Positions 4,030 to 53,702 are shown, counted from the stretch's first letter. The stretch: 64,000 nucleotides of DNA from Clostridia bacterium (GCA_017503865.1 JAFVSI010000015.1:7175-71174); one strand, 5' to 3'. Notes: generated by a model from the sequence alone, not told the origin. A program made the numbers and translations.

Positions 4030-4058
4030 TTGACAATGCACTATATATGAAGTATAAT
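4030..4058 (+). promoter_or_regulatory. Sigma-A type promoter of the rnf operon
   Basis: Perfect TTGACA (4030..4035), 17-nt spacer, perfect TATAAT (4053..4058), about 100 nt upstream of rnfC. Confidence 0.75.
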
Positions 4059-4156: not shown

Positions 4157-5476
4157 ATGGCTTTTTCTCTCAATGGGGTTCACACACCCCACAGAAAAAA
4201 TACCCAAAACAAGGCGACCATCCGTATGCCTCTTCCTGACTCGGTAACAATTCCGATGTCAATGCATATCGGTGCACCGGCTACCCCCATAGTAAAAATT
4301 GGAGATACTGTTAAAACAGGCACAAAAATTGCTGAGGCGACAGGATACGTATCGGCTCCAATATATTCAAGCATCTCGGGAAAGGTTACGAAAATCAAAG
4401 ATTTTCTTTTAAGCAATGGCTCGACAACACAGGCTATCGTCATTGAGTCGGACGGCGAGGGATCAGTTGATGACTCTATCTTCCCCCCCGTTGTCGATTC
4501 CAAAGAGTCACTTATAGCCGCTATCAAAGAAAGTGGTATCGTAGGCCTTGGCGGTGCAGGATTTCCTACACACGTAAAATTTAACGTTGATCCCGAGAAA
4601 ATAGACTATCTCATCATTAACGGTGCAGAGTGTGAGCCGTATGTAACGAGCGACACTGTTACGATGGTATCACGTACCGAGGATATGAAGATTGCTCTCA
4701 GCATAATTTGCGAGTTTTTTGGCATAAAAAACGTTATCGTAGGTGTTGAAAGTAACAACAAGACAGCGATATCCTCTATGAAGTCTTTTGCACAAGACAT
4801 GTCAGACGTTTGCAAAGTTGACGTTAAGGTTCTCCCTGCTCTTTATCCTCAGGGTGGTGAAAAGGTACTTATATATCACACAACCGGAAGAATAGTTAAA
4901 CTCGGAATGTTACCTATTGACACGGGTTGCATCGTAATAAACTGTACTACTCTCGCAGCTATCGGCAATTATCTTACAACAGGTATGCCTCTTATTGAAA
5001 AGTGCGTTACTGTTGACGGCGGTGCCGTCAGCGAGCCTCAAAACGTTATCGTTCCTATTGGAGCTCCTTTAGCGAACGTGTTTGAATTTTGCGGCGGTCT
5101 CAAAACCGAGCCTGCAAAAATCATATACGGCGGACCTATGATGGGATTAACCGTTCCCAATATGGACCAGCCTATTCTTAAGAACACAAATGCAGTTCTC
5201 GCTCTCACAGAAAAGGAAGCTTGGCTTCCCAAAACTACCGCTTGTATACGTTGCGGAGCTTGTACTAACACTTGTCCCTTCGGTATTGCTCCCGCTTTGA
5301 TAGAGCGAGCATATGACAAGAACGACATAGAAGAGCTTGAAGCACTGAACGTGGATGCTTGTATGGAATGCGGTTGCTGTAGCTTTGTGTGCCCTGCTAA
5401 CAGACCTCTTGTTCAAAAGAACAAGCTTTCAAAAGCAGTTTTAAAAAACGCTAAATCTAAGGGGGAGAAAAAATAA
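4157..5476 (+). CDS. rnfC: Rnf complex subunit C
   Basis: 439 aa. GLGGAGFPT nucleotide/FMN-binding motif. Two ferredoxin motifs, CIRCGACTNTCP and CMECGCCSFVCP. First gene of the C-D-G-E-A-B order. Confidence 0.96.
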   Translation: MAFSLNGVHTPHRKNTQNKATIRMPLPDSVTIPMSMHIGAPATPIVKIGDTVKTGTKIAEATGYVSAPIYSSISGKVTKIKDFLLSNGSTTQAIVIESDGEGSVDDSIFPPVVDSKESLIAAIKESGIVGLGGAGFPTHVKFNVDPEKIDYLIINGAECEPYVTSDTVTMVSRTEDMKIALSIICEFFGIKNVIVGVESNNKTAISSMKSFAQDMSDVCKVDVKVLPALYPQGGEKVLIYHTTGRIVKLGMLPIDTGCIVINCTTLAAIGNYLTTGMPLIEKCVTVDGGAVSEPQNVIVPIGAPLANVFEFCGGLKTEPAKIIYGGPMMGLTVPNMDQPILKNTNAVLALTEKEAWLPKTTACIRCGACTNTCPFGIAPALIERAYDKNDIEELEALNVDACMECGCCSFVCPANRPLVQKNKLSKAVLKNAKSKGEKK

Positions 5477-6405
5477 TGTCGAATAATCTTAAACTTTCAG
5501 TTTCTCCTCATATCCATAGCGGAAACTCAACCTCTACTATTATGCTTGACGTAATAGTCGCTTTGATACCTGCAACGGTTGCAGGATGTATTATATTCGG
5601 ACTTCGCTCTTGCTTAGTTCTTGCCGCTTGTATCGTAAGCTGTGTTTTATTTGAGTTTCTTTATAATTTGATACTTAAAAAGGAACAAACGATTGGTGAC
5701 TTCAGTGCTGTGGTTACAGGCTTATTGCTCGGTCTTAACCTTCCGGCAAATATTCCGATTTGGCAGTGTATCATCGGTTCGTTTATTGCAATTATTATAG
5801 TAAAGTGCCTTTTTGGCGGAATTGGATGTAACATTGTAAATCCTGCTATTACTGCAAGAGTGTTTATGCTCGTTTCCTTTGGAACGATGACTACCGCTGC
5901 TATGCCGACCGTTGTCGACACAGTTGCAGGTGCTACCCCACTTTCTGCCGAAACAATCGAGCAGTCTATTGGTGAGCTCTTTCTTGGACTTAAAGGTGGT
6001 GCTATCGGTGAGACTTGTATATTAGCTTTAGTAGTCGGTCTTGTGTACTTACTTGTGCGTAAGGTGATTAGTTGGCATATACCTCTTACTTTTATAGGTA
6101 CTGTTTACATTTGCTCCTTCTTTATGGAAGGACTTGATCCTATAAAGGCACTCGCTATGATTCTCTCGGGCGGTCTTTTCATCGGTGCAATTTTTATGGC
6201 AACCGACTACGTAACATCTCCTTCAACAGCTTGGGGCAAAGTAGTATTCGGTGTCGGTGCCGGTTTGCTTACCTTCCTCATTAGATACTTCGGTGACTAT
6301 CCCGAAGGCGTTTCCTTTGCTATTCTCTTTTTCAATATTCTTACACCTTATATTGAAAAATGGACTAAGCACAAAGTATTACTTGCAGGGGGTAAAAAAG
6401 CATGA
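5476..6405 (+). CDS. rnfD: Rnf complex subunit D
   Basis: 309 aa polytopic NqrB/RnfD family protein. Flavinylation-type motif DTVAGATPL and conserved FMATDYVTSP. TAATG overlap with rnfC. Confidence 0.95.
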   Translation: MSNNLKLSVSPHIHSGNSTSTIMLDVIVALIPATVAGCIIFGLRSCLVLAACIVSCVLFEFLYNLILKKEQTIGDFSAVVTGLLLGLNLPANIPIWQCIIGSFIAIIIVKCLFGGIGCNIVNPAITARVFMLVSFGTMTTAAMPTVVDTVAGATPLSAETIEQSIGELFLGLKGGAIGETCILALVVGLVYLLVRKVISWHIPLTFIGTVYICSFFMEGLDPIKALAMILSGGLFIGAIFMATDYVTSPSTAWGKVVFGVGAGLLTFLIRYFGDYPEGVSFAILFFNILTPYIEKWTKHKVLLAGGKKA

Positions 6406-7589
6406 AGAGTTTAATCAAAAGTGTTATAACCCTTGTTTGCGTTTGTGCTGTAATGGCATCCTTGCTCGCAGTTGCAAACATCATTACTGCTCCTATTATT
6501 GAAAAAAACAACAATGCCGCAGCAAACGAGGCGTTACTTCAGGTAATGCCTGAGGGCGAAGGTTTTGAAGAGATAGACATATCAAAATTTGAACTTCCTG
6601 CTACAGTTGCCCAAGCATATAAAGAAGCAAACGGCGGTTACGTCTTTAGACTTGTAACCACAGGTTATAAATCAAATTTTATTATAATGTGTGGCATCAA
6701 TGCTGACGGAACAGTTAGCGGTGCTATTTGCTTGAGTTCAAACGAAACACTTGGTAAGGAAAAAACGTTTGGCGAAAACTTTGTTGGCAAGAATAGCGAC
6801 GAAGTAGATACAGTTGATATTATTTCAGGTGCAACTAAAACAACTGAGGCATATCGCAACGCTGTCAAGGATGCACTGAATTCCGCTATAATTCTTGGCG
6901 GTGGCTCTGTTGACATTCGTACAGAAGAGCAAATCCTTGCAGATAATCTTTCTTCGGCTCTTCCTTCGGCAAATGGAAAATTCACAAAACTATTTATCGT
7001 CGAGACCGTCGAAGGCATTGACAAAATTTATGGTGCCACGAATGAAACCGGCTACGTTTGCGTGGTAGGCGAAGAATTTATAGGTGTAGATAACAATGGA
7101 AACGTTATCACCGAAACATCTGCTGAGAATTCACAGAATATCGCCGCACAAATAGCAAAAATCAAGTCGTCTACTATTGAAAAGCTTGATATTTCAGGCT
7201 ATACAAATATTCACAAAAACGTAATTTCTATATCAAAGACTGCTTCCGGAAACTACGTTGTTGAAACTAAGGGGGCAGGATACGGCATAAAAGGTGATGA
7301 TACTTATCATCCCATCTCAGGTGAATATATTGTTGTACGCGTTTCTATGACAAAGGACGGAAAGATTATTGATTGCTTAACCGTTTCTCAAGCAGAAACT
7401 GATGGCATCGGTTCAGCCTGTGCCGATGAAAAGTTCTACGGTCAGTTTGTCGGTAAAAACGAATCAAACTATACCGAAGTAGATGCTATCTCGGGTGCAA
7501 CAATGACCACCGATGGATATAAAAATGCTATAAAATACGCATTTGATGCTGTAAAAATAATTGAAGGGGGTTCGACTGATGCAGAATAA
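6402..7589 (+). CDS. rnfG: Rnf complex subunit G, double-length with two FMN_bind modules
   Basis: 395 aa. N-terminal TM anchor. Two flavinylation motifs: DIISGATKTT (SGAT at 6825..6836) and DAISGATMTT (SGAT at 7491..7502). ATGA overlap with rnfD. Confidence 0.93.
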   Translation: MKSLIKSVITLVCVCAVMASLLAVANIITAPIIEKNNNAAANEALLQVMPEGEGFEEIDISKFELPATVAQAYKEANGGYVFRLVTTGYKSNFIIMCGINADGTVSGAICLSSNETLGKEKTFGENFVGKNSDEVDTVDIISGATKTTEAYRNAVKDALNSAIILGGGSVDIRTEEQILADNLSSALPSANGKFTKLFIVETVEGIDKIYGATNETGYVCVVGEEFIGVDNNGNVITETSAENSQNIAAQIAKIKSSTIEKLDISGYTNIHKNVISISKTASGNYVVETKGAGYGIKGDDTYHPISGEYIVVRVSMTKDGKIIDCLTVSQAETDGIGSACADEKFYGQFVGKNESNYTEVDAISGATMTTDGYKNAIKYAFDAVKIIEGGSTDAE

Positions 7590-8268
7590 AAGTAATATGT
7601 CGGTTTTTCTCAAGGGCATACTAAAGGAAAATCCTGTACTCGTTCTTATACTCGGCACTTGTCCCACTCTCGCTACAACAACAACTGTAACGGGTGCCTT
7701 TGGTATGGGTATCGCAGCCCTTGTAGTTTTAATATGTTCAAACGTTTTTATTTCTTTACTTCGTAAGATAATTCCTGACAACGTAAGAATCCCTTGCTAT
7801 ATAGTTATTATAGCGGGATTTGTAACTATCGTTCAAATGATAGTAAAGGCTTTTTTCCCTGTTATTGACAGCTTGCTTGGTGTTTATCTACCGCTTATCA
7901 CGGTAAACTGTATAATTCTTGGTAGAGCTGAAATGTTCGCAAGTAAAAACAACGTAGTGAAATCTGCACTTGACGGAATGGGTATGGGCATAGGCTTCAC
8001 TCTTGCTCTTTGCGGTATGGCTTTTATTAGAGAGGTGTTCGGAAATGCAACCTTTGCAGGCATTGAAATTCCCTTCCTTGTACCCTACAAGATTGATTTT
8101 CTCGTTAAGTCTCCCGGTGGATTACTCGTCTTTGGTATGCTCATAGCCCTTGTATACGTTCTTACACACGGAAAGGCACCAATCAAACGTGAATTCTCTT
8201 GTGCGGGTTGCCCATCTGCAGGAAGCTGCCATACCGGCAGCTGTCAGTTGAAAGGAGATGAGCAATGA
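7579..8268 (+). CDS. rnfE: Rnf complex subunit E with Cys-rich C-terminal tail
   Basis: NqrD/RnfE family (ILGTCPTLA, PLITVNCIILGRAE). I prefer ATG 7579 (RBS GAAGGGGG at 7563..7570) over the TTG at 7561 in the ORF track. Tail CAGCPSAGSCHTGSC lies within 8188..8265. Confidence 0.93.
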   Translation: MQNKSNMSVFLKGILKENPVLVLILGTCPTLATTTTVTGAFGMGIAALVVLICSNVFISLLRKIIPDNVRIPCYIVIIAGFVTIVQMIVKAFFPVIDSLLGVYLPLITVNCIILGRAEMFASKNNVVKSALDGMGMGIGFTLALCGMAFIREVFGNATFAGIEIPFLVPYKIDFLVKSPGGLLVFGMLIALVYVLTHGKAPIKREFSCAGCPSAGSCHTGSCQLKGDEQ

Positions 8269-8864
8269 TGGATATTAAGAATTTAATTGTAATTTTGCTT
8301 TCATCAGTGCTTGTTAACAACTACGTTCTGACTCGTTTCCTCGGCATTTGTCCCTTCCTCGGTGTATCAAAAAAGATTGACCAAGCAATGGGAATGGGTA
8401 TTTCAGTAACAATTGTAATGCTTCTTGCTACAGCTGTAACTTGGCCTATCCAAAACTTTATTCTCGACGCTTTCGGTCTTGGATACATGCAGACAATTGT
8501 ATTTATACTTGTTATTGCTTCGCTTGTTCAGATGCTCGAGCTTGTCCTCAAGCGTCTTATCCCCTCGCTTTATAAGGGACTTGGAGTCTATCTTCCCCTT
8601 ATTACAACAAACTGTGCTGTTCTCGGTGTAACGATAAACAACATCGAAGACGGATTTACTTTTATTGAATCTATGGTAAGCACACTCGGTTGCGGTCTCG
8701 GATTTTTACTTGCAATGCTTCTCTTCTCCGGTATTCGTTCGAGAATTGACGAAAGAAATATAGCAAAACCTTTTCAGGGAATCGCAATAACCCTTATCGC
8801 AGCATCCTTCCTTTCCCTTGCATTCATGGGATTTGGTGGCATAGTCGAAAACATTTTTGCATAA
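8265..8864 (+). CDS. rnfA: Rnf complex subunit A
   Basis: 199 aa NqrE/RnfA family (LGICPFLGVS, PLITTNCAVLG). Start overlaps the rnfE stop. Confidence 0.95.
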   Translation: MMDIKNLIVILLSSVLVNNYVLTRFLGICPFLGVSKKIDQAMGMGISVTIVMLLATAVTWPIQNFILDAFGLGYMQTIVFILVIASLVQMLELVLKRLIPSLYKGLGVYLPLITTNCAVLGVTINNIEDGFTFIESMVSTLGCGLGFLLAMLLFSGIRSRIDERNIAKPFQGIAITLIAASFLSLAFMGFGGIVENIFA

Positions 8865-8877
8865 GGGGGTAACAGGT

Positions 8878-9708
8878 ATGTATGATATTTTAATTGCTTT
8901 TGCAATTGTCTCTGCTGTTGGTCTTATTGCAGGTATCCTTCTTGCTCTTCTCTCTCATCTTCTACATATCGAAGATGACAAAACCGTTAAAGCAGTGCGA
9001 GAATGCCTACCTGGCATAAATTGCGGTGCTTGCGGATTCAAGGGATGCGATGATTATGCCGCTGCCCTTGCAGAGGGAAAGGCTAAACCAAATCTTTGCG
9101 TTCCTGGAGGTCAAGCGGCGGCTGACGAGATAGGTAATATTCTTGGTATAACAGTTGAACCTCTTAAAGACGTTGTTGCTTTCGTTCACTGCAACGGCAA
9201 CTGTGAAGTAACTACGAAAAAGGCTGTTTACGAGGGTGTTAAGACCTGCCGTGCCGCTTCACAGGTTTATGGCGGCCCAGACACTTGCAGATTCGGTTGT
9301 ATCGGATTTGGTGACTGTGCTATAGCTTGTCCTTCAAATGCTATATGTATGAGAGACGGAATTGCACACGTTGACACAAGTAGATGTCTCGGTTGCGGTC
9401 TCTGCCAAACCATCTGCCCCAAAAAGCTTATTTCGATGGTTCCTCAGGAAACTGCCGCTGTAATTATGTGTAATAACAAGGACAAAGGAGCGGACGCAAG
9501 AAAGGTTTGCAAAAATGCTTGTATCGGCTGCAAAAAATGTGAAAAAACTTGTCCTCAAAATGCTATTACAGTTGTGGATAATTTGGCGAAAATTGATTAT
9601 GATAAGTGTACGGGATGCGGTGCTTGCATGCAAAGCTGTCCTACAGGATGCTTAAAGAAGGTATTTTTCCCGAATCTTGAAGAAGATTTCGGTCCGGAGA
9701 ATCTATAA
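8878..9708 (+). CDS. rnfB: Rnf complex subunit B (polyferredoxin)
   Basis: N-terminal TM helix, CGACGFKGC cluster, and four CxxCxxCxxxCP-type motifs (CIGFGDCAIACP, CLGCGLCQTICP, CIGCKKCEKTCP, CTGCGACMQSCP). ATG 8878 has an AAGGGGG RBS; the ORF-track start at 8857 is a TTG inside the rnfA end. Confidence 0.94.
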   Translation: MYDILIAFAIVSAVGLIAGILLALLSHLLHIEDDKTVKAVRECLPGINCGACGFKGCDDYAAALAEGKAKPNLCVPGGQAAADEIGNILGITVEPLKDVVAFVHCNGNCEVTTKKAVYEGVKTCRAASQVYGGPDTCRFGCIGFGDCAIACPSNAICMRDGIAHVDTSRCLGCGLCQTICPKKLISMVPQETAAVIMCNNKDKGADARKVCKNACIGCKKCEKTCPQNAITVVDNLAKIDYDKCTGCGACMQSCPTGCLKKVFFPNLEEDFGPENL

Positions 9709-9712
9709 AATT

Positions 9713-10132
9713 ATGTTTAATTCAAAAAACAGTATGCCCACTGCCAAAAGCAGTGGGCGTAAATCAAGAAACGATATTATACTTTTAGGGGTGCTAATAT
9801 TCGCTATTTCTATAATAGCCTTGCTTTTATATCTATTCAGTGAAACGTCGAACTCGGTAACGGTAACAATTGACGGCAAGCTATACGGAACATACCCTCT
9901 AAACGAAAATATAACTTTTGATATAAATACAGGTACCGATAATAAAGAGATCAATCGCTTGGTTATTGTGGACGGTAAAGCCTATATATCCTTTGCAACT
10001 TGCCCTGACGGTATTTGTGCAAAGCATCGACCGATTTCACGCACAGGTGAAAGCATTATCTGCTTGCCTCACAAGGTTGTTGTAAAAACCAATTCAAATA
10101 CCGAGAGTATTATTCCTGACATAGTAGCTTGA
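9713..10132 (+). CDS. NusG domain II-containing membrane-anchored protein (DUF1312-like)
   Basis: One N-terminal TM helix, then VTVTIDGKLYGTYPL...CPDGICAKHRPISRTGESIICLPHKVVV, the pattern of the NusG_II family. ATG 9713 lies 4 nt after the rnfB stop; the ORF-track start at 9677 is a TTG inside rnfB. Confidence 0.75.
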   Translation: MFNSKNSMPTAKSSGRKSRNDIILLGVLIFAISIIALLLYLFSETSNSVTVTIDGKLYGTYPLNENITFDINTGTDNKEINRLVIVDGKAYISFATCPDGICAKHRPISRTGESIICLPHKVVVKTNSNTESIIPDIVA

Positions 10133-10145
10133 TGGGAGAATTTTT

Positions 10146-10649
10146 ATGAAACGATCAGCAAATAAAGTTGCTTTGCTTGGCTTATGTACGGCACTCGCTT
10201 TGATACTTGCGTACGTTGAAGTGCTTTTACCACCGGTTTTTGCTGCCGTTCCCGGTATAAAGCTTGGTCTTCCGAATATAGTCATAATTTTTGTTCTTTA
10301 CAAATTCGGCATTTCTTCGGCAGCAACCGTTTCCTTTATCAGACTAATTGCCGTATCAATTCTTTTTGGTAATTTTATGGCCTTTGCATACAGCGTTGCA
10401 GGTGCTTTACTCAGTCTTTTATTTATGTCAATTCTATTTAAGCTTGACTTGTTTTCAACAGTTGCGGTCAGTGTTGTAGGCGGTGTTCTCCACAACGTTG
10501 GACAGGTTCTTATGGCAATAATTTTACTTGACACTGTCGAGATAGGATATTATTTAATTGTACTATCGGTAACAGGAATAATTTCAGGTGCTTTGGTAGG
10601 TCTTTGCGGTGCCCTTGCCATAAATCGACTTGATATAAATAACTCTTGA
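10146..10649 (+). CDS. Gx transporter family protein (heptaprenyl diphosphate synthase component I-like fold)
   Basis: 167 aa, about 5 TM helices. N-terminal ALLGLCTALALILAYVEVLLPP...PGIKLGLPNIV matches my recollection of this family. It usually sits beside NusG_II and ApbE genes. Confidence 0.75.
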   Translation: MKRSANKVALLGLCTALALILAYVEVLLPPVFAAVPGIKLGLPNIVIIFVLYKFGISSAATVSFIRLIAVSILFGNFMAFAYSVAGALLSLLFMSILFKLDLFSTVAVSVVGGVLHNVGQVLMAIILLDTVEIGYYLIVLSVTGIISGALVGLCGALAINRLDINNS

Positions 10650-10674
10650 CTAACATATACAGATATGATATAAT
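10646..10674 (+). promoter_or_regulatory. Internal sigma-A type promoter ahead of the FMN_bind-like lipoprotein
   Basis: TTGACT (10646..10651), 17-nt spacer, TATAAT (10669..10674). GGAGGTG RBS precedes ATG 10704. Confidence 0.6.
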
Positions 10675-10703
10675 CTAAACAATAAAAAAATTGGAGGTGT
10701 TTT

Positions 10704-11684
10704 ATGAAAAAACTACTTTGTATCTTTCTTAGTATTCTTATGATTTTTGCTACACTTACTTTTGTAGGTTGCAAAAAAGATGCCCCCGCTCTCAAAATCG
10801 GTTTGGGAGTTTATACAACTGTTTCGGCAACAAGTGCTGACGGTGAAGTCGATGGTCAAGGCAAAGCCACTGTTACAGTTGCTACTGTTTTAGTTGATGC
10901 AGATGGCAAGGTCGTTTCCTGTCAGCTTGACGTAGCCGACAACACCGTTAAGTATACCTCTGAAGGCAAGCCGATGGTTTACTATGGTTTGAAAACAAAA
11001 TATGAACAAGGTGCCGACTATAATATGAAGGCATACGGTGGTGCTGCTAAGGAATGGTTCGAGCAGGCAGATGCCTTTGAAGGTGTTGTTGCTGGTAAGA
11101 CTCTAAATGAGATCAAGTCACTTGTTGCAGCCGAAAACAAAGGTACCGATGAGGTAATAAATGCTGGCTGTACAATCATGGTCAATGAATTTGTAAATGC
11201 AGTTGAAAAAGCTATTACAAATGCTGTAGATTCTGCTGCAACAGCAGAGTCAGCTCTAAAGCTTGGTGTTTACACCGAGCAAACTTGCAAGGATGCTGAA
11301 GAAGAAAAGGACGGACAGAGCAAGCTCGAAACAACTGTTTTCGCAGCAGCACTTGATGCTGATGGAAAAATAGTTGCCGCATTAAGCGACTGTGTTCAAG
11401 TAACTTTTACTTTTGATATAAAAGGTGCTTCAACGTTTGATTCTACAAAGCCCGTTATAAGCAAGAGAGACGCCAGAGATTCATATGGAATGAAGGCTTA
11501 CGGCGGAGCTGCTAAGGAATGGCACGAGCAAGCTGACACATTCAATACGGCTTGTATTGGAAAAACACCCAAAGAAGTCGCTTCACTTATGGCTAACGAT
11601 AATTACGGTAATGCTGACGTTAAGGCTTCGGGATGTACGATACTTGTAAACGGCTTCGTTAAAGCTGCTGAAAAAATAGGTTAA
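10704..11684 (+). CDS. Lipoprotein with two tandem FMN_bind-like repeats (candidate ApbE substrate)
   Basis: Signal peptide plus lipobox LTFVGC. Two ~150-aa repeats share MKAYGGAAKEW.EQAD and end in DEVINAGCTIMVNEFVNAVEKA and DVKASGCTILVNGFVKAAEKIG. This resembles the D..SGAT...AV..A end of FMN_bind domains, but with GCT. Confidence 0.6.
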   Translation: MKKLLCIFLSILMIFATLTFVGCKKDAPALKIGLGVYTTVSATSADGEVDGQGKATVTVATVLVDADGKVVSCQLDVADNTVKYTSEGKPMVYYGLKTKYEQGADYNMKAYGGAAKEWFEQADAFEGVVAGKTLNEIKSLVAAENKGTDEVINAGCTIMVNEFVNAVEKAITNAVDSAATAESALKLGVYTEQTCKDAEEEKDGQSKLETTVFAAALDADGKIVAALSDCVQVTFTFDIKGASTFDSTKPVISKRDARDSYGMKAYGGAAKEWHEQADTFNTACIGKTPKEVASLMANDNYGNADVKASGCTILVNGFVKAAEKIG

Positions 11685-11687
11685 TAG

Positions 11688-11714
11688 AAACGGGTGGTCA
11701 ACCACCCGTTTTTA
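11688..11714 (+). terminator. Hairpin/terminator between the lipoprotein gene and apbE
   Basis: aaacgggtgg (11688..11697), tcaa loop, ccacccgttt (11702..11711), then T run. Confidence 0.7.
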
Positions 11715-11723
11715 ATAAATATT

Positions 11724-12776
11724 ATGAAAAAGAAATTTATCGTTTTAATACTATTGTTGTCTTTAATTCTTTTGCCTTCCCTGCTTGGCTCGTGTAACAA
11801 AGAAACAACAAAATACACAAGTTACTCGTTTGATTACTTTGATACTGTCACTTCAATAGTTGGATACGCAAAAAGCGAAGAAGAATTCAACGAAATTTCC
11901 GAACGCATTTTAGAGGAGCTTGAAGAGTACCACAAGCTTTTTACAATTTATCATAGATACGAAAATTTTGAAAATCTTTGCACTGTAAACGAATTGGTAA
12001 ACGGCGAGCACCGTACAGTTACCGTTGACAAAAAAATTATTGATTTGCTTGAATATTCAAAAGAAATGTATCAAAAAACAAACGGTAAGGTCAATATCGC
12101 TATGGGTAGTGTCCTTTCAATTTGGCACGATTACAGAGAGAACGGTATTTCAGATCCTGCTAACGCCAAACTCCCACCTATGGAGAAGTTGACAGAAGCA
12201 TCAAAACACACTAACATCGAAAAACTCATTATTGATAAAAACGCAGGCACCGTATTTCTTTCAGATCCTAATATGAAGCTTGACGTGGGAGCAATAGCTA
12301 AGGGCTACGCCGTTGAAATGATTGCAAAAGGTCTTGAAAACGACGGTATCTCGGGATATGTACTCAACGTTGGCGGAAACGTTCGTACCGTTGGAACAAA
12401 GGGAGACGGAGAAAAATGGGTAGTCGGCATAGAAAATCCAGACGAAAACAGCGAAGAGTCATACATTGCCTATCTCGAGCTTTCAGGTGAATCTCTCGTT
12501 ACAAGCGGCTCATATCAAAGATATTATATAGTTGACTCAAAGAGGTACCACCATATAATCGATCCTGAAACTCTGATGCCGTCAGACAAATTTTTGTCGG
12601 TTTCGGTAGTTTGTAAAAACTCAGCTGACGGAGATGCTATTTCAACTGCACTCTTTTGTATGGAGCTTGATGAAGGACTTGAATTTGTAAACTCTCTTTC
12701 TAGTGTCGAAGCTATGTGGGTTGATGTTGACGGCAATATCCACTATTCGAACGGCTTTAAAAACTATATAAAATAA
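11724..12776 (+). CDS. apbE: FAD:protein FMN transferase (ApbE family) lipoprotein
   Basis: Lipobox LLGSC. ApbE motifs VGAIAKGYA, SLVTSGSYQRYY, HHIIDPETL, DGDAISTALF. Start ATG 11724 (MKKKF); the GTG at 11694 lies inside the hairpin. Confidence 0.92.
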   Translation: MKKKFIVLILLLSLILLPSLLGSCNKETTKYTSYSFDYFDTVTSIVGYAKSEEEFNEISERILEELEEYHKLFTIYHRYENFENLCTVNELVNGEHRTVTVDKKIIDLLEYSKEMYQKTNGKVNIAMGSVLSIWHDYRENGISDPANAKLPPMEKLTEASKHTNIEKLIIDKNAGTVFLSDPNMKLDVGAIAKGYAVEMIAKGLENDGISGYVLNVGGNVRTVGTKGDGEKWVVGIENPDENSEESYIAYLELSGESLVTSGSYQRYYIVDSKRYHHIIDPETLMPSDKFLSVSVVCKNSADGDAISTALFCMELDEGLEFVNSLSSVEAMWVDVDGNIHYSNGFKNYIK

Positions 12777-12802
12777 AGGAGAAAGCAAGTGCTTTCTCCT
12801 TT
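12775..12802. terminator. Bidirectional terminator shared by apbE and lplA
   Basis: aaaggagaaagc / gctttctccttt with aagt loop. A/T runs on both sides. Overlaps both stop codons. Confidence 0.75.
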
Positions 12803-13769
12803 ATTTTATAAGTTCAAAAAACTCTTCAAACGTCATTTTATCGACATAAGAAGATACGTTAAAATACGGTAGATTTGACAGAGACTTCCCTATTAAAAAT
12901 CTCTCAAGTTCCTTTATATCCAAGATGCCAAAGAAATCTCCTGAGATTACTATATCTTCAATAATGTCTTTAGTAAGTTTCATTTCAACATCAACAACAC
13001 CAAATGGATATTTTTTTCTTTTGTGAACAGTGTAATTGGTTAAATACTGCTTTGTGGAATAGATCCATTCATCGTCACGATTTCTATTATAAAGCTCTAT
13101 AATACCTTCGTTTTCATCAACCGTGAAAATCTCAGCACCGAATTGCGATAGAACAAAATTTTCAACGTGATTGATAAAATCCTCGGCACTAATTTTTTCG
13201 TTCAATAATTCAACAATATTAATTACACGGCTCTTATGAGACTTAACAGCCTTGTATTCAAGCTTTTCTTTATCTACTTTTAGGACAGATGACATAACGT
13301 CAACATTGGCATTAAAAAGGAGAGTTCCGTGATGCAAAATTCTTCCGTTTGCCGAATACTGTGCGTTACCCGAAATTTTACGTCCCTCGCACTCTATATC
13401 ATTTCTGCCGCTTAGCTCACATTTAAGACCTAAAGCGGCAATAGCATCGATTATTGGCTTTGTAAAAATTTCGTAATTAAGAGCAGTTGCTTTTTCAGTT
13501 GTAGTTATAAATGAATAGTTGATGTTGCCGAGATCGTGATATACAGCACCGCCACCGGTTATTCGTCTTGATATTTTGACATTGTTCCGCTTAGCATATT
13601 CTAAATCAACCTCTGCATAAACGTTTTGATTTTTTCCAACGACAACCGTATTATCATTTTGCCAAAGCATAAAAACATCGTCGTCAGCAGTCTTAAAAAG
13701 ATATTCCTCAACTGCGAGATTGTAATAAGGATCAGTTGTTTTTAATCTTATATATTTCATATCAAACAA
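12801..13769 (-). CDS. lplA: Lipoate-protein ligase A
   Basis: 322 aa. DPYYNLAVEEYLF, RRITGGGAVYHDLGN and GRKISGNAQ motifs. Last gene of the 2-oxoacid dehydrogenase operon. Alternative start at 13760. Confidence 0.92.
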   Translation of the reverse strand: MFDMKYIRLKTTDPYYNLAVEEYLFKTADDDVFMLWQNDNTVVVGKNQNVYAEVDLEYAKRNNVKISRRITGGGAVYHDLGNINYSFITTTEKATALNYEIFTKPIIDAIAALGLKCELSGRNDIECEGRKISGNAQYSANGRILHHGTLLFNANVDVMSSVLKVDKEKLEYKAVKSHKSRVINIVELLNEKISAEDFINHVENFVLSQFGAEIFTVDENEGIIELYNRNRDDEWIYSTKQYLTNYTVHKRKKYPFGVVDVEMKLTKDIIEDIVISGDFFGILDIKELERFLIGKSLSNLPYFNVSSYVDKMTFEEFFELIK

Positions 13770-13814
13770 ATTTCGGGCATATTTCTATGCCCGAAATCTT
13801 TCTATAAATTTTGA

Positions 13815-16298
13815 TTAGATGCCCTTCTTGCTGCGTTCGATTTTCTCGATCTCAGTGAAGTTCTGTTCGGGAACGTATCCGGGAATAGGCATAATCTTCT
13901 CAGCAAGTGCATCGATTATCCAGCTTGCCTGCGGGAAGAAGCTCTTCTCAAGCTCGAAGGAAGGAGTGATCCAGTTGCGAGAACCAACTACTACAGGAGG
14001 TCCATCGAGGTAATCAAATGCAAGCTCTGTGATGTTAGAAGCCATATCACGCATTACAGAACCACGCTCACAAGCGTCACCAACGAGCAATACCTTACCT
14101 GTCTTCTTAACAGACTCAATAACCTTCTCATAGTTGAAAGGAACGATAGAACGTGTATCGATAACTTCTGCAGAAATTCCGTACTTCTCTTCAAGAATCT
14201 TTGCAGCTTCCATAGCACGGTAAAGAACTGCACCAATTGTAACGATAGTAACGTCCTTACCCTCTTTCTTTACATCAGGCTCACCGAAAGGAATTTCAAA
14301 GTGTCCAACGGGAACACCGTCCTTATTGAACTCTTCACCAAAGCCGTAAACTCTCTGCGACTCGAAGAATACAACAGGGTCAGTACCGTTAAGAGCACTT
14401 GTCATAAGTCCCTTAGCATCGGTAGGAGTTGAGGGGAATACAACCTTAAGTCCGGGAATATGCGAACAGATTGCAGTCCAGTCCTGAGAGTGCTGAGCAC
14501 CGTACTTAGAACCAACGGAAACACGAAGAACGATAGGCATCTTGAGGATACCTGCAGACATTGCCTGCCACTTAGCCATCTGGTTGAATATTTCATCACC
14601 TGCGCAACCGATAAAGTCAGCGTACATAAGCTCAACGATTGCACGACCGCCACACATTGCGTAACCAACTGCCGAGCCAACAATAGCAGACTCAGAAATA
14701 GGCGAGTTAAAGAAGCGGTGGTAAGGAATAGCCTCAGTCATCTTCTTATAAACACCGAATGCTCCGCCCCAGTCACGATTATCTTCACCGTAAGCGATAA
14801 GTGTAGGATCTTCGTAGAATTTATCAATAATAGGCTCAAAGAGAGCGTCAGTAACGTTGTACATCTTCATCTTAGAAACGGGCTTGCCATTCTCGTCCTT
14901 AGCTGTACGAACCTTGTTAGCAATCTCCTTAACTCTGGGACACTCTTCCTTAGGCATAAGAACCTCAGGCTCACGAGTTGTATCCATGCTGGGAACGTTC
15001 TGATTAGAGAACATGATAGAAGCAATCGCATCAGGCTCTTTCTTGAGATCCATACGAGGAGAAATCTCATCGTTGATAGCAAGCTTCATGATCTCTGTCA
15101 TACGAGCAGTGATGCTCTCGTGCATTGCAGCAAATTCCTCTTCCTTAGCTACGCCGCCAAGAATGAGCTTGGTCTTGAATGCAACGATAGGATCTGCTGC
15201 CTTCCAAGCCTCGATCTCCTCAGCTGTACGGTAGGTAGAAGAGTCGGAAGGAGAGTGACCGGATACACGGTAAGTAACAACGTCGAGAAGTGCGGGACCC
15301 TTGCCCTCAAGAAGGAGCTGCTTCTTGCGGCTTACAGCATCTATAACTGCGAGAGGATCGTAACCGTTTACACGCTCTGCGTGCATCTGGCTGGGATTAA
15401 AGCCTGCACCGAGACGTGCAACCATATCAAAGCCCATTGTTTCACCGCGAGTCTGTCCACCCATGCCGTAATGGTTATTAAATACGTTAAAGAGGATAGG
15501 CATACCGCCATCGCTAAACTTGCCGTCCATACCCCAAAGCTTTGTGATCTGGTCCATAGAAGCAAAGTTGAGAGACTCAAGCACAGGACCACGGCCGGTA
15601 GCACCGTCACCACAGTTGGAGATTACGATACCGGGCTTGTGGTTAGATCTCTTGTAGAGAGCTGCACCGAGAGCAATAGGAGCAGATGCACCGACAATAG
15701 CATTGTTAGGCATAAGTCCAAAAGGAATGAAGAATGCGTGCATTGATCCGCCAAGACCGCGGTTGAAACCTGTCTTACGAGCGAAGATTTCTGCAAGTGC
15801 ACCGTAAAGAAGGAAGTTGATAGCAAGATCCTTGATATTCTCAGACTTCATATGCTTCTCAACAACAGAAAGAACAGCTCCGCCGAGGAACTCCTTCATT
15901 ATGTCATAAACTTCTTCGTCAGTGAGCTTGTGAATTGAGGAAAGTCCCTTAGCAAGAATCTCTCCGTGGCTACGGTGAGAACCAAAGGAAAGGTCGTTTA
16001 TATCAAGCGAGTAAGCTTCACCAACAGCAGAAGCTTCCTGACCGATAGAAAGGTGAGCAGGACCGGGGTTGTTGTATTCAACGCCGTTGTAGTTGCTCTT
16101 AACCTTAACCTCGTTAAGCATTGTTTCAAATTCACGAATGATTGCCATATCTCTATAGATACGCATCATATCCTCTTTGGTGTAGAGCTTAAGCTCTTCC
16201 TTAAGAGTTTTGTTGTACTGACATACAGGTATGTCCTCAAAATGAATGTAGCCGGCATCAAAAGCTTTACCGGGATCAACATATTGACTCTTAGGCAT
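13815..16298 (-). CDS. 2-oxoacid dehydrogenase E1 component, fused alpha and beta subunits (ThDP-dependent)
   Basis: 827 aa. N-terminal half has the ThDP motif GDGATGRG...NNHYGMGG. C-terminal half has the transketolase-like pyrimidine-binding block FNSPISESAIVGSAVGYAMCGGRAIVELMYADF. No stop between the halves. Confidence 0.9.
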   Translation of the reverse strand: MPKSQYVDPGKAFDAGYIHFEDIPVCQYNKTLKEELKLYTKEDMMRIYRDMAIIREFETMLNEVKVKSNYNGVEYNNPGPAHLSIGQEASAVGEAYSLDINDLSFGSHRSHGEILAKGLSSIHKLTDEEVYDIMKEFLGGAVLSVVEKHMKSENIKDLAINFLLYGALAEIFARKTGFNRGLGGSMHAFFIPFGLMPNNAIVGASAPIALGAALYKRSNHKPGIVISNCGDGATGRGPVLESLNFASMDQITKLWGMDGKFSDGGMPILFNVFNNHYGMGGQTRGETMGFDMVARLGAGFNPSQMHAERVNGYDPLAVIDAVSRKKQLLLEGKGPALLDVVTYRVSGHSPSDSSTYRTAEEIEAWKAADPIVAFKTKLILGGVAKEEEFAAMHESITARMTEIMKLAINDEISPRMDLKKEPDAIASIMFSNQNVPSMDTTREPEVLMPKEECPRVKEIANKVRTAKDENGKPVSKMKMYNVTDALFEPIIDKFYEDPTLIAYGEDNRDWGGAFGVYKKMTEAIPYHRFFNSPISESAIVGSAVGYAMCGGRAIVELMYADFIGCAGDEIFNQMAKWQAMSAGILKMPIVLRVSVGSKYGAQHSQDWTAICSHIPGLKVVFPSTPTDAKGLMTSALNGTDPVVFFESQRVYGFGEEFNKDGVPVGHFEIPFGEPDVKKEGKDVTIVTIGAVLYRAMEAAKILEEKYGISAEVIDTRSIVPFNYEKVIESVKKTGKVLLVGDACERGSVMRDMASNITELAFDYLDGPPVVVGSRNWITPSFELEKSFFPQASWIIDALAEKIMPIPGYVPEQNFTEIEKIERSKKGI

Positions 16299-16321
16299 TT
16301 TTATATCTCCTTTTAAAAATA

Positions 16322-17680
16322 TTACATAAACATAGATTCACGAATAACTTCGCAAACCGTGGGGTGCGGGAATACGATCTTCTGAATATCCTCAACTCTC
16401 ATTTCGGTCTCAACCATCATAGCTGCACCGTAAATGATTTCAGAAGCGTAGCTACCGATCATGTGAAGTCCAACGATATTCTTGTGCTTCTTATCGGTAA
16501 TTACCTTAAGAATTCCGTATCCGTGCTCGTTCTCGGCAATATATCTGCCGCTGTACTTGAGAGTAACAGTCTGAACGTTTACGTCAAGCCCCTTCTCCTT
16601 GGCACTTTCAGTTGTTTCACCAACCGAAGCGACCTCAGGATTTGTATAGATTACTGCAGGAATGGAGTTGTAGTTGACTCTATCCTTCTTGCCAAGAATA
16701 TTGTTTATACAAACTTCGCCTTCTCTGTAAGCAGTATGAGCAAGCATTGACTTACCGTTTACGTCACCTGCTGCCCAAACACCAGGAACGTTTGTCTTAC
16801 CCATCTCGTTAGTAACTATAGCACCACGTTCAAGCTTAAGTCCGATATTTTCGCAACCGATACCTGCGGTTCTTGCACGACGACCGATAGAAACAAGAGC
16901 GTAATCACAAGGAATTTCAGTAACCTTGCCGTCCTTCTCATAGCAAACCTTCTTGTCCTTGATAGAGGTTACTCTTGCACCAAGAATAAACTCAACTCCA
17001 CGAGAAGCATAATCCTTTTGAAGGAGTGTTGAAATTTCTCTATCAACAGGACCTGCGATATGGTCGAGCATCTCAACAACGTAAACCTTGGAGCCTACTG
17101 AATTGAAGTAAGATGCCATCTCAAGACCTATAACACCACCGCCGACAACAACCATTGTCTTAGGAATCTCAGTAAGGTCAAGAACCTCTCTGTTTGTAAG
17201 TGCGAAGCCTGCCTTAAGAGAATCAGCAAGACCGTCAATAGGAGGAAGTGCGGGAGCAGAACCTGTAGCAATAAGAAGCTGTTTACCAACGTAATCCTTG
17301 CCGTCAGCAGTGACAACGAAACCTTCACTGTTTCTCTCCTTGATAACGGCAGAAGCCTTAACGACCTCAACGCCGCTCTTCTTCATCTTTCCGCCTATAC
17401 CGGAAACGAGCTGTTTTACAACACCGTTTTTACGGTTTACCACAAAAGCGTGGTCGATCTCAGCAGAACCAAAGGTTACACCGTAATCCTTGCCGTGCTT
17501 AGCATAATCATAAATCTTTGCGGAATACAAAAGAGTCTTTGTGGGGATACAACCCTCGTTAAGACAAACACCGCCAAGAGCTCTCTCTTCTATAACGAGA
17601 GTCTTGAGACCTGCGTGGCCGGCTCTTTCAGCCGCATTATAACCAGCAGGGCCGCCACCGAGAATAATTAAATCGTACAT
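16322..17680 (-). CDS. lpdA: Dihydrolipoyl dehydrogenase (E3)
   Basis: GGGPAGY FAD fold, redox disulfide GGVCLNEGCIPTK, C-terminal HPTVCEVIRE. Confidence 0.96.
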   Translation of the reverse strand: MYDLIILGGGPAGYNAAERAGHAGLKTLVIEERALGGVCLNEGCIPTKTLLYSAKIYDYAKHGKDYGVTFGSAEIDHAFVVNRKNGVVKQLVSGIGGKMKKSGVEVVKASAVIKERNSEGFVVTADGKDYVGKQLLIATGSAPALPPIDGLADSLKAGFALTNREVLDLTEIPKTMVVVGGGVIGLEMASYFNSVGSKVYVVEMLDHIAGPVDREISTLLQKDYASRGVEFILGARVTSIKDKKVCYEKDGKVTEIPCDYALVSIGRRARTAGIGCENIGLKLERGAIVTNEMGKTNVPGVWAAGDVNGKSMLAHTAYREGEVCINNILGKKDRVNYNSIPAVIYTNPEVASVGETTESAKEKGLDVNVQTVTLKYSGRYIAENEHGYGILKVITDKKHKNIVGLHMIGSYASEIIYGAAMMVETEMRVEDIQKIVFPHPTVCEVIRESMFM

Positions 17681-17696
17681 TTACAAACTTCCCTTC

Positions 17697-19028
17697 TTAC
17701 TTTGTCAAAAGCAAATCAAAATTTTCAAGTGCGAATACAAGCTCCTTGAGGAATCTTGCCGCATCAGCACCGTCAAGCACTCTATGGTCAACAGTAAGAG
17801 AAAGTCCCATTGCAGAATAGGTTACGTCCTCACCGTTAACTTCCTTAATTCTCTTTGTCAAGCCGCAAACACCAAGTATTGCTGTCTGGGGAGGATTGAT
17901 AATGGGAGTAAAGGACTCAATTCCAAGAGAACCGAGATTAGAAATCGTGAAGGTTGCACCCTTGAGATAGTCAGGGTTGATAGTACCGCTCTGAGCAGCA
18001 GCTATAACAGACTTAGCTTCCTTTGAGATCTCGTTAAGAGACATTTTCTCTGCGTGGAATACGGTAGGAACCATAAGTCCTCTTTCGGTATCAACCGCAA
18101 CACCGATGTTAACTGTGTTGAAATATCTCATTGTCTCGTCAAGACAGTGAGCATTGAGTCCCTTGTGGTTAAGAACTACACGGGATACAGCGTAAAGAAT
18201 GATATCATTAAGAGTTATGTTAGCAAGTCCCATCTTCTCAGCACCAGCCTTAAGAGACTTACGAAGAGCAAGAATCTTTGTTGCATCAAAAGAAGTATTG
18301 AGTGTGATCTGTGCCATTGTTGTAAGAGACGCACACATCTGCTTAGAAATGATCTTTCTGATATTTGAAAGCTTAACATCCTCATATTCAGCAACAGTAG
18401 TAGCAACGGGAGCCTCGGTAGCTACTGCTGCGGCGGGAGCATTGAGATCAGCGAGAACAACCTTTCCGTTAATTCCGCTTCCCTCAACTGCTGTTGTGTA
18501 GTTAGCAGAAGCAGCACCGGAAACGGTAAGTCCGCGATCAACAAGACTCTGAACGTCTCTCTCTATAATACGTCCGTTAGGACCTGTAGGTGTCGCCTTA
18601 AGAAGGTCTGCACCTGTCTTTGCTGCAAGAGCCTTAGCTCTCGGAGAAATAGCACCGGTAGCTTCGCTTGAAGTAGCTTGTGCCGCAACCTCAACTGTCG
18701 CTGCAGTCTCAGCAGGTGCTGCCTCAGCCGCCTGAGCCTCTGCTACGGGCTCATCCTCAGATTTAGGAACGAAAGCTGAAAAATCCTCTCCGTCCTGACC
18801 AATAACACATACGTTTTCAAGACAAGGAACGTCATCGCCCTCTTCTCTGAAAATTGCCAAAATTTTTCCACTCTCGGGAGCGGGCTCATCGAAGGAAGAT
18901 TTATCTGTCTCGTACGAGAAAAGAATTTCTCCCTTTTCAACTGTATCGCCAACCTTCTTGTTCCAAGAAGTGATGATACAGGATTCAACGCTCTGTCCCT
19001 GACGTGGCATAATAATCGGTGTTGCCAT
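17697..19028 (-). CDS. Dihydrolipoamide acyltransferase (E2)
   Basis: Lipoyl domain with YETDKSSFD lysine, Ala/Glu-rich linker, E3-binding domain SPRAKALAAKTGADL, catalytic DHRVLDGA. Confidence 0.95.
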   Translation of the reverse strand: MATPIIMPRQGQSVESCIITSWNKKVGDTVEKGEILFSYETDKSSFDEPAPESGKILAIFREEGDDVPCLENVCVIGQDGEDFSAFVPKSEDEPVAEAQAAEAAPAETAATVEVAAQATSSEATGAISPRAKALAAKTGADLLKATPTGPNGRIIERDVQSLVDRGLTVSGAASANYTTAVEGSGINGKVVLADLNAPAAAVATEAPVATTVAEYEDVKLSNIRKIISKQMCASLTTMAQITLNTSFDATKILALRKSLKAGAEKMGLANITLNDIILYAVSRVVLNHKGLNAHCLDETMRYFNTVNIGVAVDTERGLMVPTVFHAEKMSLNEISKEAKSVIAAAQSGTINPDYLKGATFTISNLGSLGIESFTPIINPPQTAILGVCGLTKRIKEVNGEDVTYSAMGLSLTVDHRVLDGADAARFLKELVFALENFDLLLTK

Positions 19029-53348: not shown

Positions 53349-53645
53349 TGCTTTAAACAACAAAAATATTATAAATATTTAACGTTTTAATGTCACAATT
53401 GCACAAAGCACCAATGGGTTTCAACTTCACTAAAGAGATTATGCAAAAAACCGCGAATAAATATTTATAAATATTCATAATTTTGGACAAAACAAAGACT
53501 CTATCAACGCCCATAAATCCAAAATATATTATACTTCTTTTTTACTAAAATTGCAATAGTATTGTGATATTTTTTTACGATTATTATATTGAAAATCTAT
53601 TTTTTTCCTTTACGTATTTTAAAATTTATATTTTTGATAAAAATA

Positions 53646-53674
53646 GTGACACAAGTATTATTTTGTGGTATAAT
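53646..53674 (+). promoter_or_regulatory. Promoter of ribF
   Basis: GTGACA (53646..53651), 17-nt spacer, TATAAT (53669..53674) with upstream TGTGG. Confidence 0.5.
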
Positions 53675-53702
53675 ATACAAAAACTTTGAAAGGAGAACGG
53701 AA

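Follow-up and report, generated by a model that had tools for sequence, protein, structure and literature searches.

In many anaerobic gut Firmicutes energy coupling takes place mainly at Rnf, which needs covalent flavins that are attached outside the cell; it is well established that ApbE transfers flavin mononucleotide (FMN) from flavin adenine dinucleotide (FAD) to a threonine of RnfD and RnfG. One of the closest described systems is the extracellular electron transfer (EET) locus of Listeria monocytogenes, which contains the genes dmkA, eetB, eetA, ndh2, pplA, dmkB, fmnB and fmnA. In this work, we analyzed a stretch of 64,000 nucleotides from a Clostridia bacterium (GCA_017503865.1, JAFVSI010000015.1:7175-71174; hereafter the window), in which a complete rnfCDGEAB operon is followed by four genes encoding homologues of EetA and EetB, a lipoprotein with two repeats that we call LP, and a lipoprotein of the ApbE family. 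The initial annotation of this region had proposed an extracytoplasmic flavin module tied to Rnf, and this idea holds. Our preferred reading, to which we give a probability of roughly 0.55, is that these genes form a cassette appended to Rnf that supplies flavin on the outer side of the membrane, flavinylates proteins there and relays electrons.

The window and the Listeria EET locus have in common the EetA (PF07009) and EetB (PF07456) pair, an ApbE-type lipoprotein flavin transferase (FmnB in Listeria) and a surface lipoprotein with two flavin-type domains (PplA in Listeria), the cofactors being all loaded outside the cell. However, unlike the Listeria locus, the window has no Ndh2, no DmkA/B and no energy-coupling factor (ECF) T subunit of the FmnA type, and the membrane partner is Rnf instead of Ndh2/quinone. 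The absence of Ndh2 and quinone genes, already noticed in the initial annotation, was confirmed by a Pfam search, which found neither Ndh2 nor DmkA/DmkB or other quinone-biosynthesis families among the large open reading frames (ORFs) of the window. The domains of LP fit the longer FMN-bind2 type and carry an A-G-C-T motif, whereas those of Listeria PplA are Pfam FMN_bind domains with SGAT. The earlier likening of LP to PplA stands as a resemblance in kind.

Listeria EetB pulls down FAD, its model resembles an ECF-S subunit, and it works together with FmnA (ECF-T) and EcfA/A'; it is needed for PplA flavinylation and EET, and external FAD partly rescues its loss (Rivera-Lugo et al. 2023, mBio, PMC9973259). 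The same study reported eetB together with eetA in 3,328 genomes and together with apbE in 2,169; in 572 Clostridia genomes it lies beside rnf. These Clostridia clusters show the same gene association as our locus, and the role proposed for them is FAD export for Rnf flavinylation. Since PF07456 is the operational definition of eetB in that work, and its Data Set S1 labels PF07009 as EetA, the NusG_II and Gx genes of the window are homologues of eetA and eetB; an independent account of the Listeria EET locus describes lmo2639 as a DUF1312 protein. The initial annotation had named these families correctly but stated that no EetA/B was visible, which is wrong, and that neither protein had a demonstrated function, which remains true for EetA but not for the Gx family. 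Its suggestion that the Gx protein supplies FAD to ApbE was correct in substance, FAD export being an established function of the family, as shown in Listeria; the rnf-eetAB-apbE neighbourhood, too, is already published. By analogy, EetB-mediated FAD export and flavinylation of RnfD and RnfG by ApbE very probably apply to this locus as well.

In the window the rnf operon lies on the + strand behind atpA, atpG, atpD and atpC, spans positions 4157-9708, and was assigned with both Pfam and NCBIfam. It comprises rnfC (4157-5476), rnfD (5476-6405), rnfG (6402-7589), rnfE (7561-8268), rnfA (8265-8864) and rnfB (8857-9708, stop codon 9706-9708), so that all six subunits are present. RnfG has 395 amino acids and two FMN_bind domains. 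Canonical flavinylation motifs are found in RnfD (DTVAGAT, T154, nt 5935-5937) and twice in RnfG (DIISGAT, T145, nt 6834-6836, and DAISGAT, T367, nt 7500-7502), all on the + strand. The four ORFs placed 3' of rnfB by the initial annotation are all present, on the same strand and in the place given, and the four nucleotides (AATT) that it counted between the rnfB stop and the next ATG at 9713 are also there.

The eetA homologue (9713-10132, +) encodes 139 residues with a single N-terminal transmembrane anchor and an extracytoplasmic NusG_II/DUF1312 domain (PF07009, E 1.2e-25). The hydrophobic stretch of residues 23-43 follows a K/R-rich N-terminus, which suggests an N-in topology. This protein matches PDB 4ESN (E 1.6e-18) and also Lin0431, both structural-genomics proteins without known function, and its motif CPDGIC..H..GESI.CLP is at least 90% conserved among 75 sequences of the window's lineage. 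The eetB homologue (10146-10649, +) starts 13 nt after the end of eetA and encodes a polytopic protein of 167 residues, predicted to be an ECF-S-type FAD export subunit, which matches PF07456 (Gx, or Hpre_diP_synt_I) at E 2e-35 with 122 bits against a cut-off of 30, over profile positions 2-144 of 147. One gene 3' of eetB lies apbE (11724-12776, +), predicted to encode a lipoprotein FAD:protein FMN transferase and covering the complete PF02424 profile (positions 1-266 of 266, E 2.2e-71). Its likely start is the ATG at 11724, which gives MKKKF..LLGSC with a lipobox, and the alternative GTG at 11694 falls inside a hairpin. The signal peptide (MKKKFIVLILLLSLILLPSLLGS, followed by the C of the lipobox LLGSC) identifies an extracytoplasmic lipoprotein, and together with the full-length PF02424 match it bears out the earlier call of a lipoprotein ApbE flavin transferase, the E-values of the three family calls ranging from 1e-25 to 2e-71. 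Against the NCBIfam equivalog NF007774 the protein scored 125.6 bits (E 2e-36), below the 498-bit cut-off, and it is therefore not the enterobacterial ortholog.

The association of these genes is not peculiar to the source genome. A scan of one genome per species yielded 546 relatives, of which we kept the best 80 loci, all from gut/rumen Oscillospirales-type metagenome-assembled genomes (MAGs); as regards rnf-eetAB-apbE, this sample is not independent of LP. The order rnfC-D-G-E-A-B-eetA-eetB-LP-apbE is seen wherever the contig allows, in essentially all 80 species-level genomes, with protein identities to the window of 41-74% and the same eetA-eetB-apbE layout in 69-74 of the 80. No flanking gene family is common to more than 6 of the 80 loci, and the genes that flank the block in the window (atp, lplA and the 2-oxoacid dehydrogenase genes) recur in none of them. 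As the block is conserved among unrelated flanks, it is maintained as a unit, and the arrangement is far beyond chance; the conservation expected by the initial annotation thus extends to about 80 species with the same ten genes. RnfG is always the two-domain form of about 390 residues. Some rearrangement occurs: the LP-apbE pair lies upstream of rnfC in five loci, in which eetA-eetB stays 3' of rnfB, and six loci (L012, L015, L016, L020, L021 and L032) keep rnfB-eetA-LP-apbE without eetB, with about 170 nt between eetA and LP. In these six species EetA is retained without its presumed transporter partner.

The fourth member of the module, LP (10704-11684, +), is a lipoprotein of 326 residues with two FMN-bind2-like repeats of about 150 residues, preceded by a strong Shine-Dalgarno sequence (GGAGGTG). 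Its lipobox is TFVGC, and Cys23 is invariant among 35 homologues. The signal is of the Sec/lipoprotein type without twin-Arg, so any cofactor must be added outside the cell, and ApbE does exactly that. The family is large, with 2,047 matches at 90% clustering and 1,308 clusters at 50% identity (E up to 1e-3), and its members carry two, four or six repeats. AlphaFold2 (AF2) models have a predicted local distance difference test (pLDDT) score of 92.8 for both the whole protein and a single repeat, each repeat consisting of three strands of 13-15 residues followed by helices, and the predicted template modelling score (pTM) of 0.87 for the whole protein indicates a fixed pairing of the two repeats in the model. 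The FMN-bind2 class was described as domains of about 160 residues found by BLAST and not by Pfam, present in two, four or six copies, in which two domains join through sheets of extended beta1-beta3 strands as a pseudo-symmetric unit with two flavins (Huang et al. 2024, mSystems, PMC11334425). Like LP, these proteins are extracytosolic and ApbE-associated, with even copy numbers and paired domains. In repeat length, strand pattern, copy number and ApbE adjacency, LP fits the class by its published description; a cluster look-up aimed at the exemplars NTW96865.1 and WP_312031774.1 did not recover them and returned only 'hypothetical protein' records.

The link of LP to FMN_bind proper is weak in direct tests and rests on a transitive connection and on context. 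The family profile matches PDB 2KZX (E 1.1e-8) over its C-terminal 66 residues, with the SGAT of 2KZX aligned to the GCT of LP, and the 2KZX fragment scores 26.1 bits against PF04205, above the cut-off of 22. This structure, solved by nuclear magnetic resonance for an uncharacterised Clostridium thermocellum protein, comprises one small domain without known function; no other solved structure shows sequence similarity to LP, and Foldseek failed to return 2KZX for either LP model. In the LP relative P0223, a canonical FMN_bind domain is fused to LP-type repeats. Among 113 diverse two-repeat family members, which also served for the motif counts out of 113 given below, PF04205 matched six weakly (best E 1.6e-4); the other Pfam matches of this set were mostly noise (SPRY, Mfa2 and similar). 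The description of LP as a lipoprotein with two FMN_bind-like repeats is thus sound as to the lipoprotein and the two repeats, but the FMN_bind likeness found no support in Pfam, hhalign or Foldseek.

Each LP repeat carries a candidate flavinylation site, T157 in INAGCT (V-I-N-A-G-C-T, nt 11172-11174, +) and T312 in KASGCT (V-K-A-S-G-C-T, nt 11637-11639, +). Neither conforms to the canonical D-x-x-[ST]-G-A-[ST]: the Gly and the terminal Thr are kept, Cys replaces Ala, and there is no Asp at -6. Thus, the five flavinylation sites counted by the initial annotation comprise three canonical ones, in RnfD and RnfG, and two non-canonical ones in LP. G-C-T is invariant in both repeats of the 35 close homologues. 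Across the 113 members, position 0 is the best conserved residue in both repeats (Thr in 109, Ser in 3), whereas Cys (94 in repeat 1 and 91 in repeat 2), Val (13 and 16) and Ala (5 and 4) are found at position -1. Gly occupies position -2 in 87 and 76 members, either Val or Asp stands at -6, and there are relatives with SGAT or AGAT at the motif. The alternation of C, V and A at -1 argues for a requirement for a small side chain and not for thiol chemistry. According to a review on ApbE, an A-to-V change at -1 leaves about 50% of flavinylation and D-to-A has only a minor effect in vitro (PMC12052999), and the deviation of the LP motif is therefore compatible with modification. Taken together, it is likely that LP is flavinylated at T157 and T312.

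LP also differs from its neighbours in how it is transcribed. The TTGACT-17-TATAAT promoter noted in the initial annotation (10646-10674, +; 11 of 12 positions, with a TG-extended -10) overlaps the eetB stop codon, and the only comparable site in the block is a perfect TTGACA-17-TATAAT (4030-4058, +; 12 of 12) before the rnf operon. With the criterion TTGAC(A/T)-17-TAnnnT within 120 nt upstream, promoter-like sites were found before LP in 65 of 79 species and before rnfC in 40 of 57 related loci, and in only 0-2 loci for each of the other eight block genes (apbE, 1 of 77). Immediately after LP there is an intrinsic-terminator hairpin (11685-11714, +) with a 13-bp stem and A- and U-tracts (-19.6 kcal/mol, z -5.7). 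Hairpins of -12 kcal/mol or lower with A and U tracts follow LP in 78 of 80 species, with differing stem sequences, and their median energy is -18.7 kcal/mol versus -7 to -16 after the other genes. This control is imperfect, as coding sequence after other genes gives -12 kcal/mol or lower in about 10-70% of loci, depending on the gene, and the case for the terminator is based jointly on its occurrence in 78 of 80 loci, its lower median energy and the presence of A and U tracts. As its promoter and terminator are both conserved across species, LP is by these sequence signals a separate, self-contained transcription unit, predicted to be strongly expressed. In the window apbE has neither its own promoter nor an obvious Shine-Dalgarno sequence and is most likely expressed by read-through of the LP terminator; the enzyme would therefore stay far below its substrate. 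The earlier statement that the rnf operon continues into these genes is accurate in that all four lie on the same strand behind rnfB, but LP has its own promoter and a terminator hairpin separates it from apbE. The block is closed by a bidirectional terminator hairpin (12774-12803, listed on the - strand; -18.7 kcal/mol, z -6.0) shared with the convergent lplA.

A perfect 9-bp GC-rich hairpin, GCCCACTGC-CAAAA-GCAGTGGGC (9736-9758), is located within the initial codons of eetA, shortly after the rnfB stop, and no U-tract accompanies it on the + strand. In 43 of 73 related loci, the 110 nt 3' of rnfB include a hairpin of -12 kcal/mol or lower. The hairpin of the window may act in processing or attenuation between rnf and eetAB, and the true start of eetA could be the ATG at 9734.

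More distant relatives of LP, at 30-37% identity, were inspected in six contexts (L081-L086). An apbE gene adjoins the LP relative in four of them (L082-L085) and is one gene away in L086, that is, in five of six; Rnf subunits occur in two and fumarate-reductase-like flavoenzymes in one. The metagenomic locus L082 (7063-14260) reads EetA-EetB, a four-repeat LP with an SGAT site, ApbE, RnfC, RnfD and an RnfG of 177 residues, followed by a membrane protein of 143 residues. RnfE, RnfA and RnfB are not found in this 18-kb locus, which gives the impression of an NADH-side half-Rnf that serves only to feed extracytoplasmic flavins. In a Sphaerochaetaceae genome (L083, 9001-20952) a six-repeat LP and ApbE precede RnfC-D-G-E-A, EetA and EetB, an ORF of 149 residues, ECF-A (ABC_tran) and ECF-T (CbiQ); its RnfG has 649 residues and non-canonical motifs, and RnfB was not detected in the locus. 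The LP-apbE pair is found without any rnf gene in L084, with a four-repeat LP and ApbE followed by a flavodiiron protein and rubredoxin, and in L085, with a four-repeat LP and ApbE. In L086 (387-10998), EetA-EetB are followed by two FMN_bind+FAD_binding_2 reductases resembling fumarate reductase, a four-repeat LP with ASVT-type motifs, a RibU-like ECF-S subunit and ApbE. By analogy with PplA, such neighbourhoods are what one would expect for an ApbE substrate relaying electrons from a membrane donor to extracytoplasmic enzymes, L082 joining LP to RnfCDG and L086 joining it to the two reductases.

According to these data, a possible course of events can be outlined. The EetB homologue, as an ECF-type substrate subunit with the ECF-T/A/A' subunits encoded elsewhere, would export cytoplasmic FAD across the membrane to its outer face, as judged from the protein's family. 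The EetA homologue, its conserved partner, would present an outward-facing, membrane-anchored domain with a motif of three Cys and one His; that it hands FAD over to ApbE is a guess. ApbE would then transfer FMN from FAD to T154 of RnfD and to T145 and T367 of RnfG, and most likely would also modify T157 and T312 of LP. LP would be an abundant surface lipoprotein with a pseudo-symmetric two-flavin structure of the FMN-bind2 type made from its own strong promoter, and the terminator after it would keep the expression of apbE low relative to that of its substrate. Finally, the additional FMN domain at the C-terminus of RnfG might donate electrons to LP, which would pass them outward to extracytoplasmic acceptors or reductases, a step suggested by context that we put forward only tentatively. 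An additional route for electrons to the outside had already been proposed for multi-flavinylated RnfG proteins (Meheust et al. 2021, eLife, PMC8238504). The outcome would be a quinone-independent, Rnf-fed counterpart of Listeria PplA. A broader and more speculative view, which we consider rather unlikely, is that Rnf in gut/rumen Oscillospirales is a three-way junction and not a closed ferredoxin:NAD+ loop, in which the extra FMN of RnfG passes electrons to the A-G-C-T lipoprotein and reducing equivalents are vented or taken up at the surface without quinones or cytochromes. Relatives of the L082 type would then be a dedicated wire from NADH to the outside, and flavin-thiol chemistry might come in through the near-invariant Cys that adjoins the Thr.

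Several observations weigh against such a cassette. The window shows neither an acceptor nor a terminal reductase, and co-regulation of LP with rnf is not required, given that LP has a promoter and a terminator to itself. A Listeria delta-eetA strain showed no EET phenotype. Neither a CbiQ/ECF-T gene nor an ECF-type ABC_tran gene is present in the 64-kb window, shared ECF modules being usually encoded elsewhere in the genome; local FAD export is evidently dispensable in the six species whose loci lack eetB; and L081 holds an orphan LP relative with no flavin genes nearby. The main competing explanation is that the genes are a maturation cassette only, in which EetA, EetB and ApbE flavinylate RnfD and RnfG while LP, although flavinylated too, works independently of Rnf. 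LP might then be the acceptor of another membrane donor, or a flavin-binding or scavenging surface protein, adjoining apbE merely as a substrate. The separate transcription of LP would fit this explanation, as would the LP-apbE pairs without rnf genes in L084 and L085 and the occurrence of the pair on either side of rnf; furthermore, the association of eetB and apbE with rnf was published for 572 Clostridia genomes with no reference to such a lipoprotein in the portion of the paper considered here (PMC9973259). However, LP lies inside or directly beside the rnf block in about 80 species while the flanks turn over completely, all these species also carry the two-domain RnfG, and L082 and L083 again join LP relatives with Rnf subunits, across phyla. 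We therefore regard maturation alone as the less probable explanation, with a modest share of the likelihood. The PplA-like arrangement wired to Rnf, as first annotated, is confirmed in that the module stands beside Rnf and LP is PplA-like in kind, but the passage of electrons from Rnf to LP is inferred only. A reading of the adjacency as inherited synteny of one narrow lineage, without functional meaning, could appeal to the fact that all 80 close loci come from related gut/rumen Oscillospirales MAGs; it is already contradicted by the present data, as the block is conserved and its flanks are not, the gene set recurs rearranged in the Sphaerochaetaceae genome and in other Clostridia, and the published genome-wide statistics give the same association (PMC9973259), and we give it hardly any credence.

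A different objection concerns LP itself, which might not be a flavoprotein at all, its Cys motif serving other chemistry (a thiol redox site or ligand binding) and its likeness to FMN_bind being too remote. LP belongs to no Pfam family (E up to 0.01) and no NCBIfam family, and it does not reach the gathering score of FMN_bind PF04205. Alignment of the LP family with RnfG by hhalign gave a probability of 5.9%, which is not significant, although the GK(T)...motif...helix segment was aligned correctly. Foldseek searches of the models against PDB gave no match at E of 0.001 or lower, and no FMN_bind structure (NqrC, RnfG, 3O6U) was among the 50 top-ranked matches of either the whole protein or the single repeat. 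The best match was to IscU scaffolds, with a probability of 0.9 or more, a TM-score of 0.31-0.38, a root mean square deviation of about 7 A and E 6e-3. In addition, Cys stands at -1 in 94 and 91 of the 113 relatives in place of an Ala that has been called strictly conserved, and the canonical Asp at -6 is missing in the subfamily. On the other hand, the Thr, kept in 109 of the 113, is better conserved than the Cys (94 and 91), the free exchange of C, V and A at position -1 points to a steric and not a chemical role, and SGAT or AGAT occupies the same position in relatives; ApbE adjacency, seen in 80 close and five of six distant contexts, is near-universal, and there remain the link through 2KZX to FMN_bind and the fusion in P0223 to a canonical FMN_bind domain. 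It thus seems improbable that LP carries no flavin, and flavinylation of LP, as part of the supply and relay cassette, remains our preference. Two other roles were considered for LP and rejected. An Fe-S scaffold is incompatible with a content of one or two Cys in each repeat, of which that in beta3 is present in 78 of 113 (repeat 1) and 30 of 113 (repeat 2), and also with the Sec/lipoprotein signal, since a protein already folded around its cofactor would be excluded from this route. We also discarded a disulfide, structural or redox, linking the Cys of beta3 to that of the motif, since no co-variation of the two positions was seen.

Of the four genes, three are already published, as is their association with rnf, and LP fits a published, uncurated domain class. 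What is new relative to the cited papers, to the extent that they were covered here, is the A-G-C-T motif that dominates the LP family, the presence of LP as a separately transcribed gene between eetB and apbE in the rnf block of about 80 species, the mobile LP-apbE pair and the RnfCDG-only cluster. The parts of PMC9973259 consulted contain no description of a separate two-domain lipoprotein between eetB and apbE, which, lacking a Pfam domain, would stay unannotated in its tables; likewise, those of PMC11334425 and PMC8238504 make no mention, for FMN-bind2 proteins, of a dominance of Cys at -1 or of a separate promoter and terminator. The locus is a clean and highly conserved example of the published FAD-export/ApbE supply line, and it brings to light flavin-type lipoproteins that form a large family without curation and are linked genetically to ApbE as well as, in this lineage, to Rnf. 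Given its non-canonical motif, censuses of flavinylated proteins based on motifs or on Pfam will miss this family. If LP does draw electrons from Rnf, this would explain how gut anaerobes without quinones and cytochromes reach extracellular acceptors.

Some other features of the window deserve mention. Convergent with apbE, a 2-oxoacid dehydrogenase set (a fused E1 alpha-beta of 827 residues, E3 and E2) and lplA occupy positions 12801-19028 on the - strand. No FMN riboswitch or other RNA family was found in the window with Rfam. The bifunctional riboflavin kinase/FAD synthetase gene ribF (53589-54638, +) lies about 41 kb from the flavin module and is probably a housekeeping gene. Finally, an ORF of 1,344 residues (44561-48595, -) shows an unusual fusion of domains of the carbamoyl-phosphate synthase large chain (CarB) to a C-terminal diaminopimelate epimerase (DapF) domain (residues 1222-1335, approximately).

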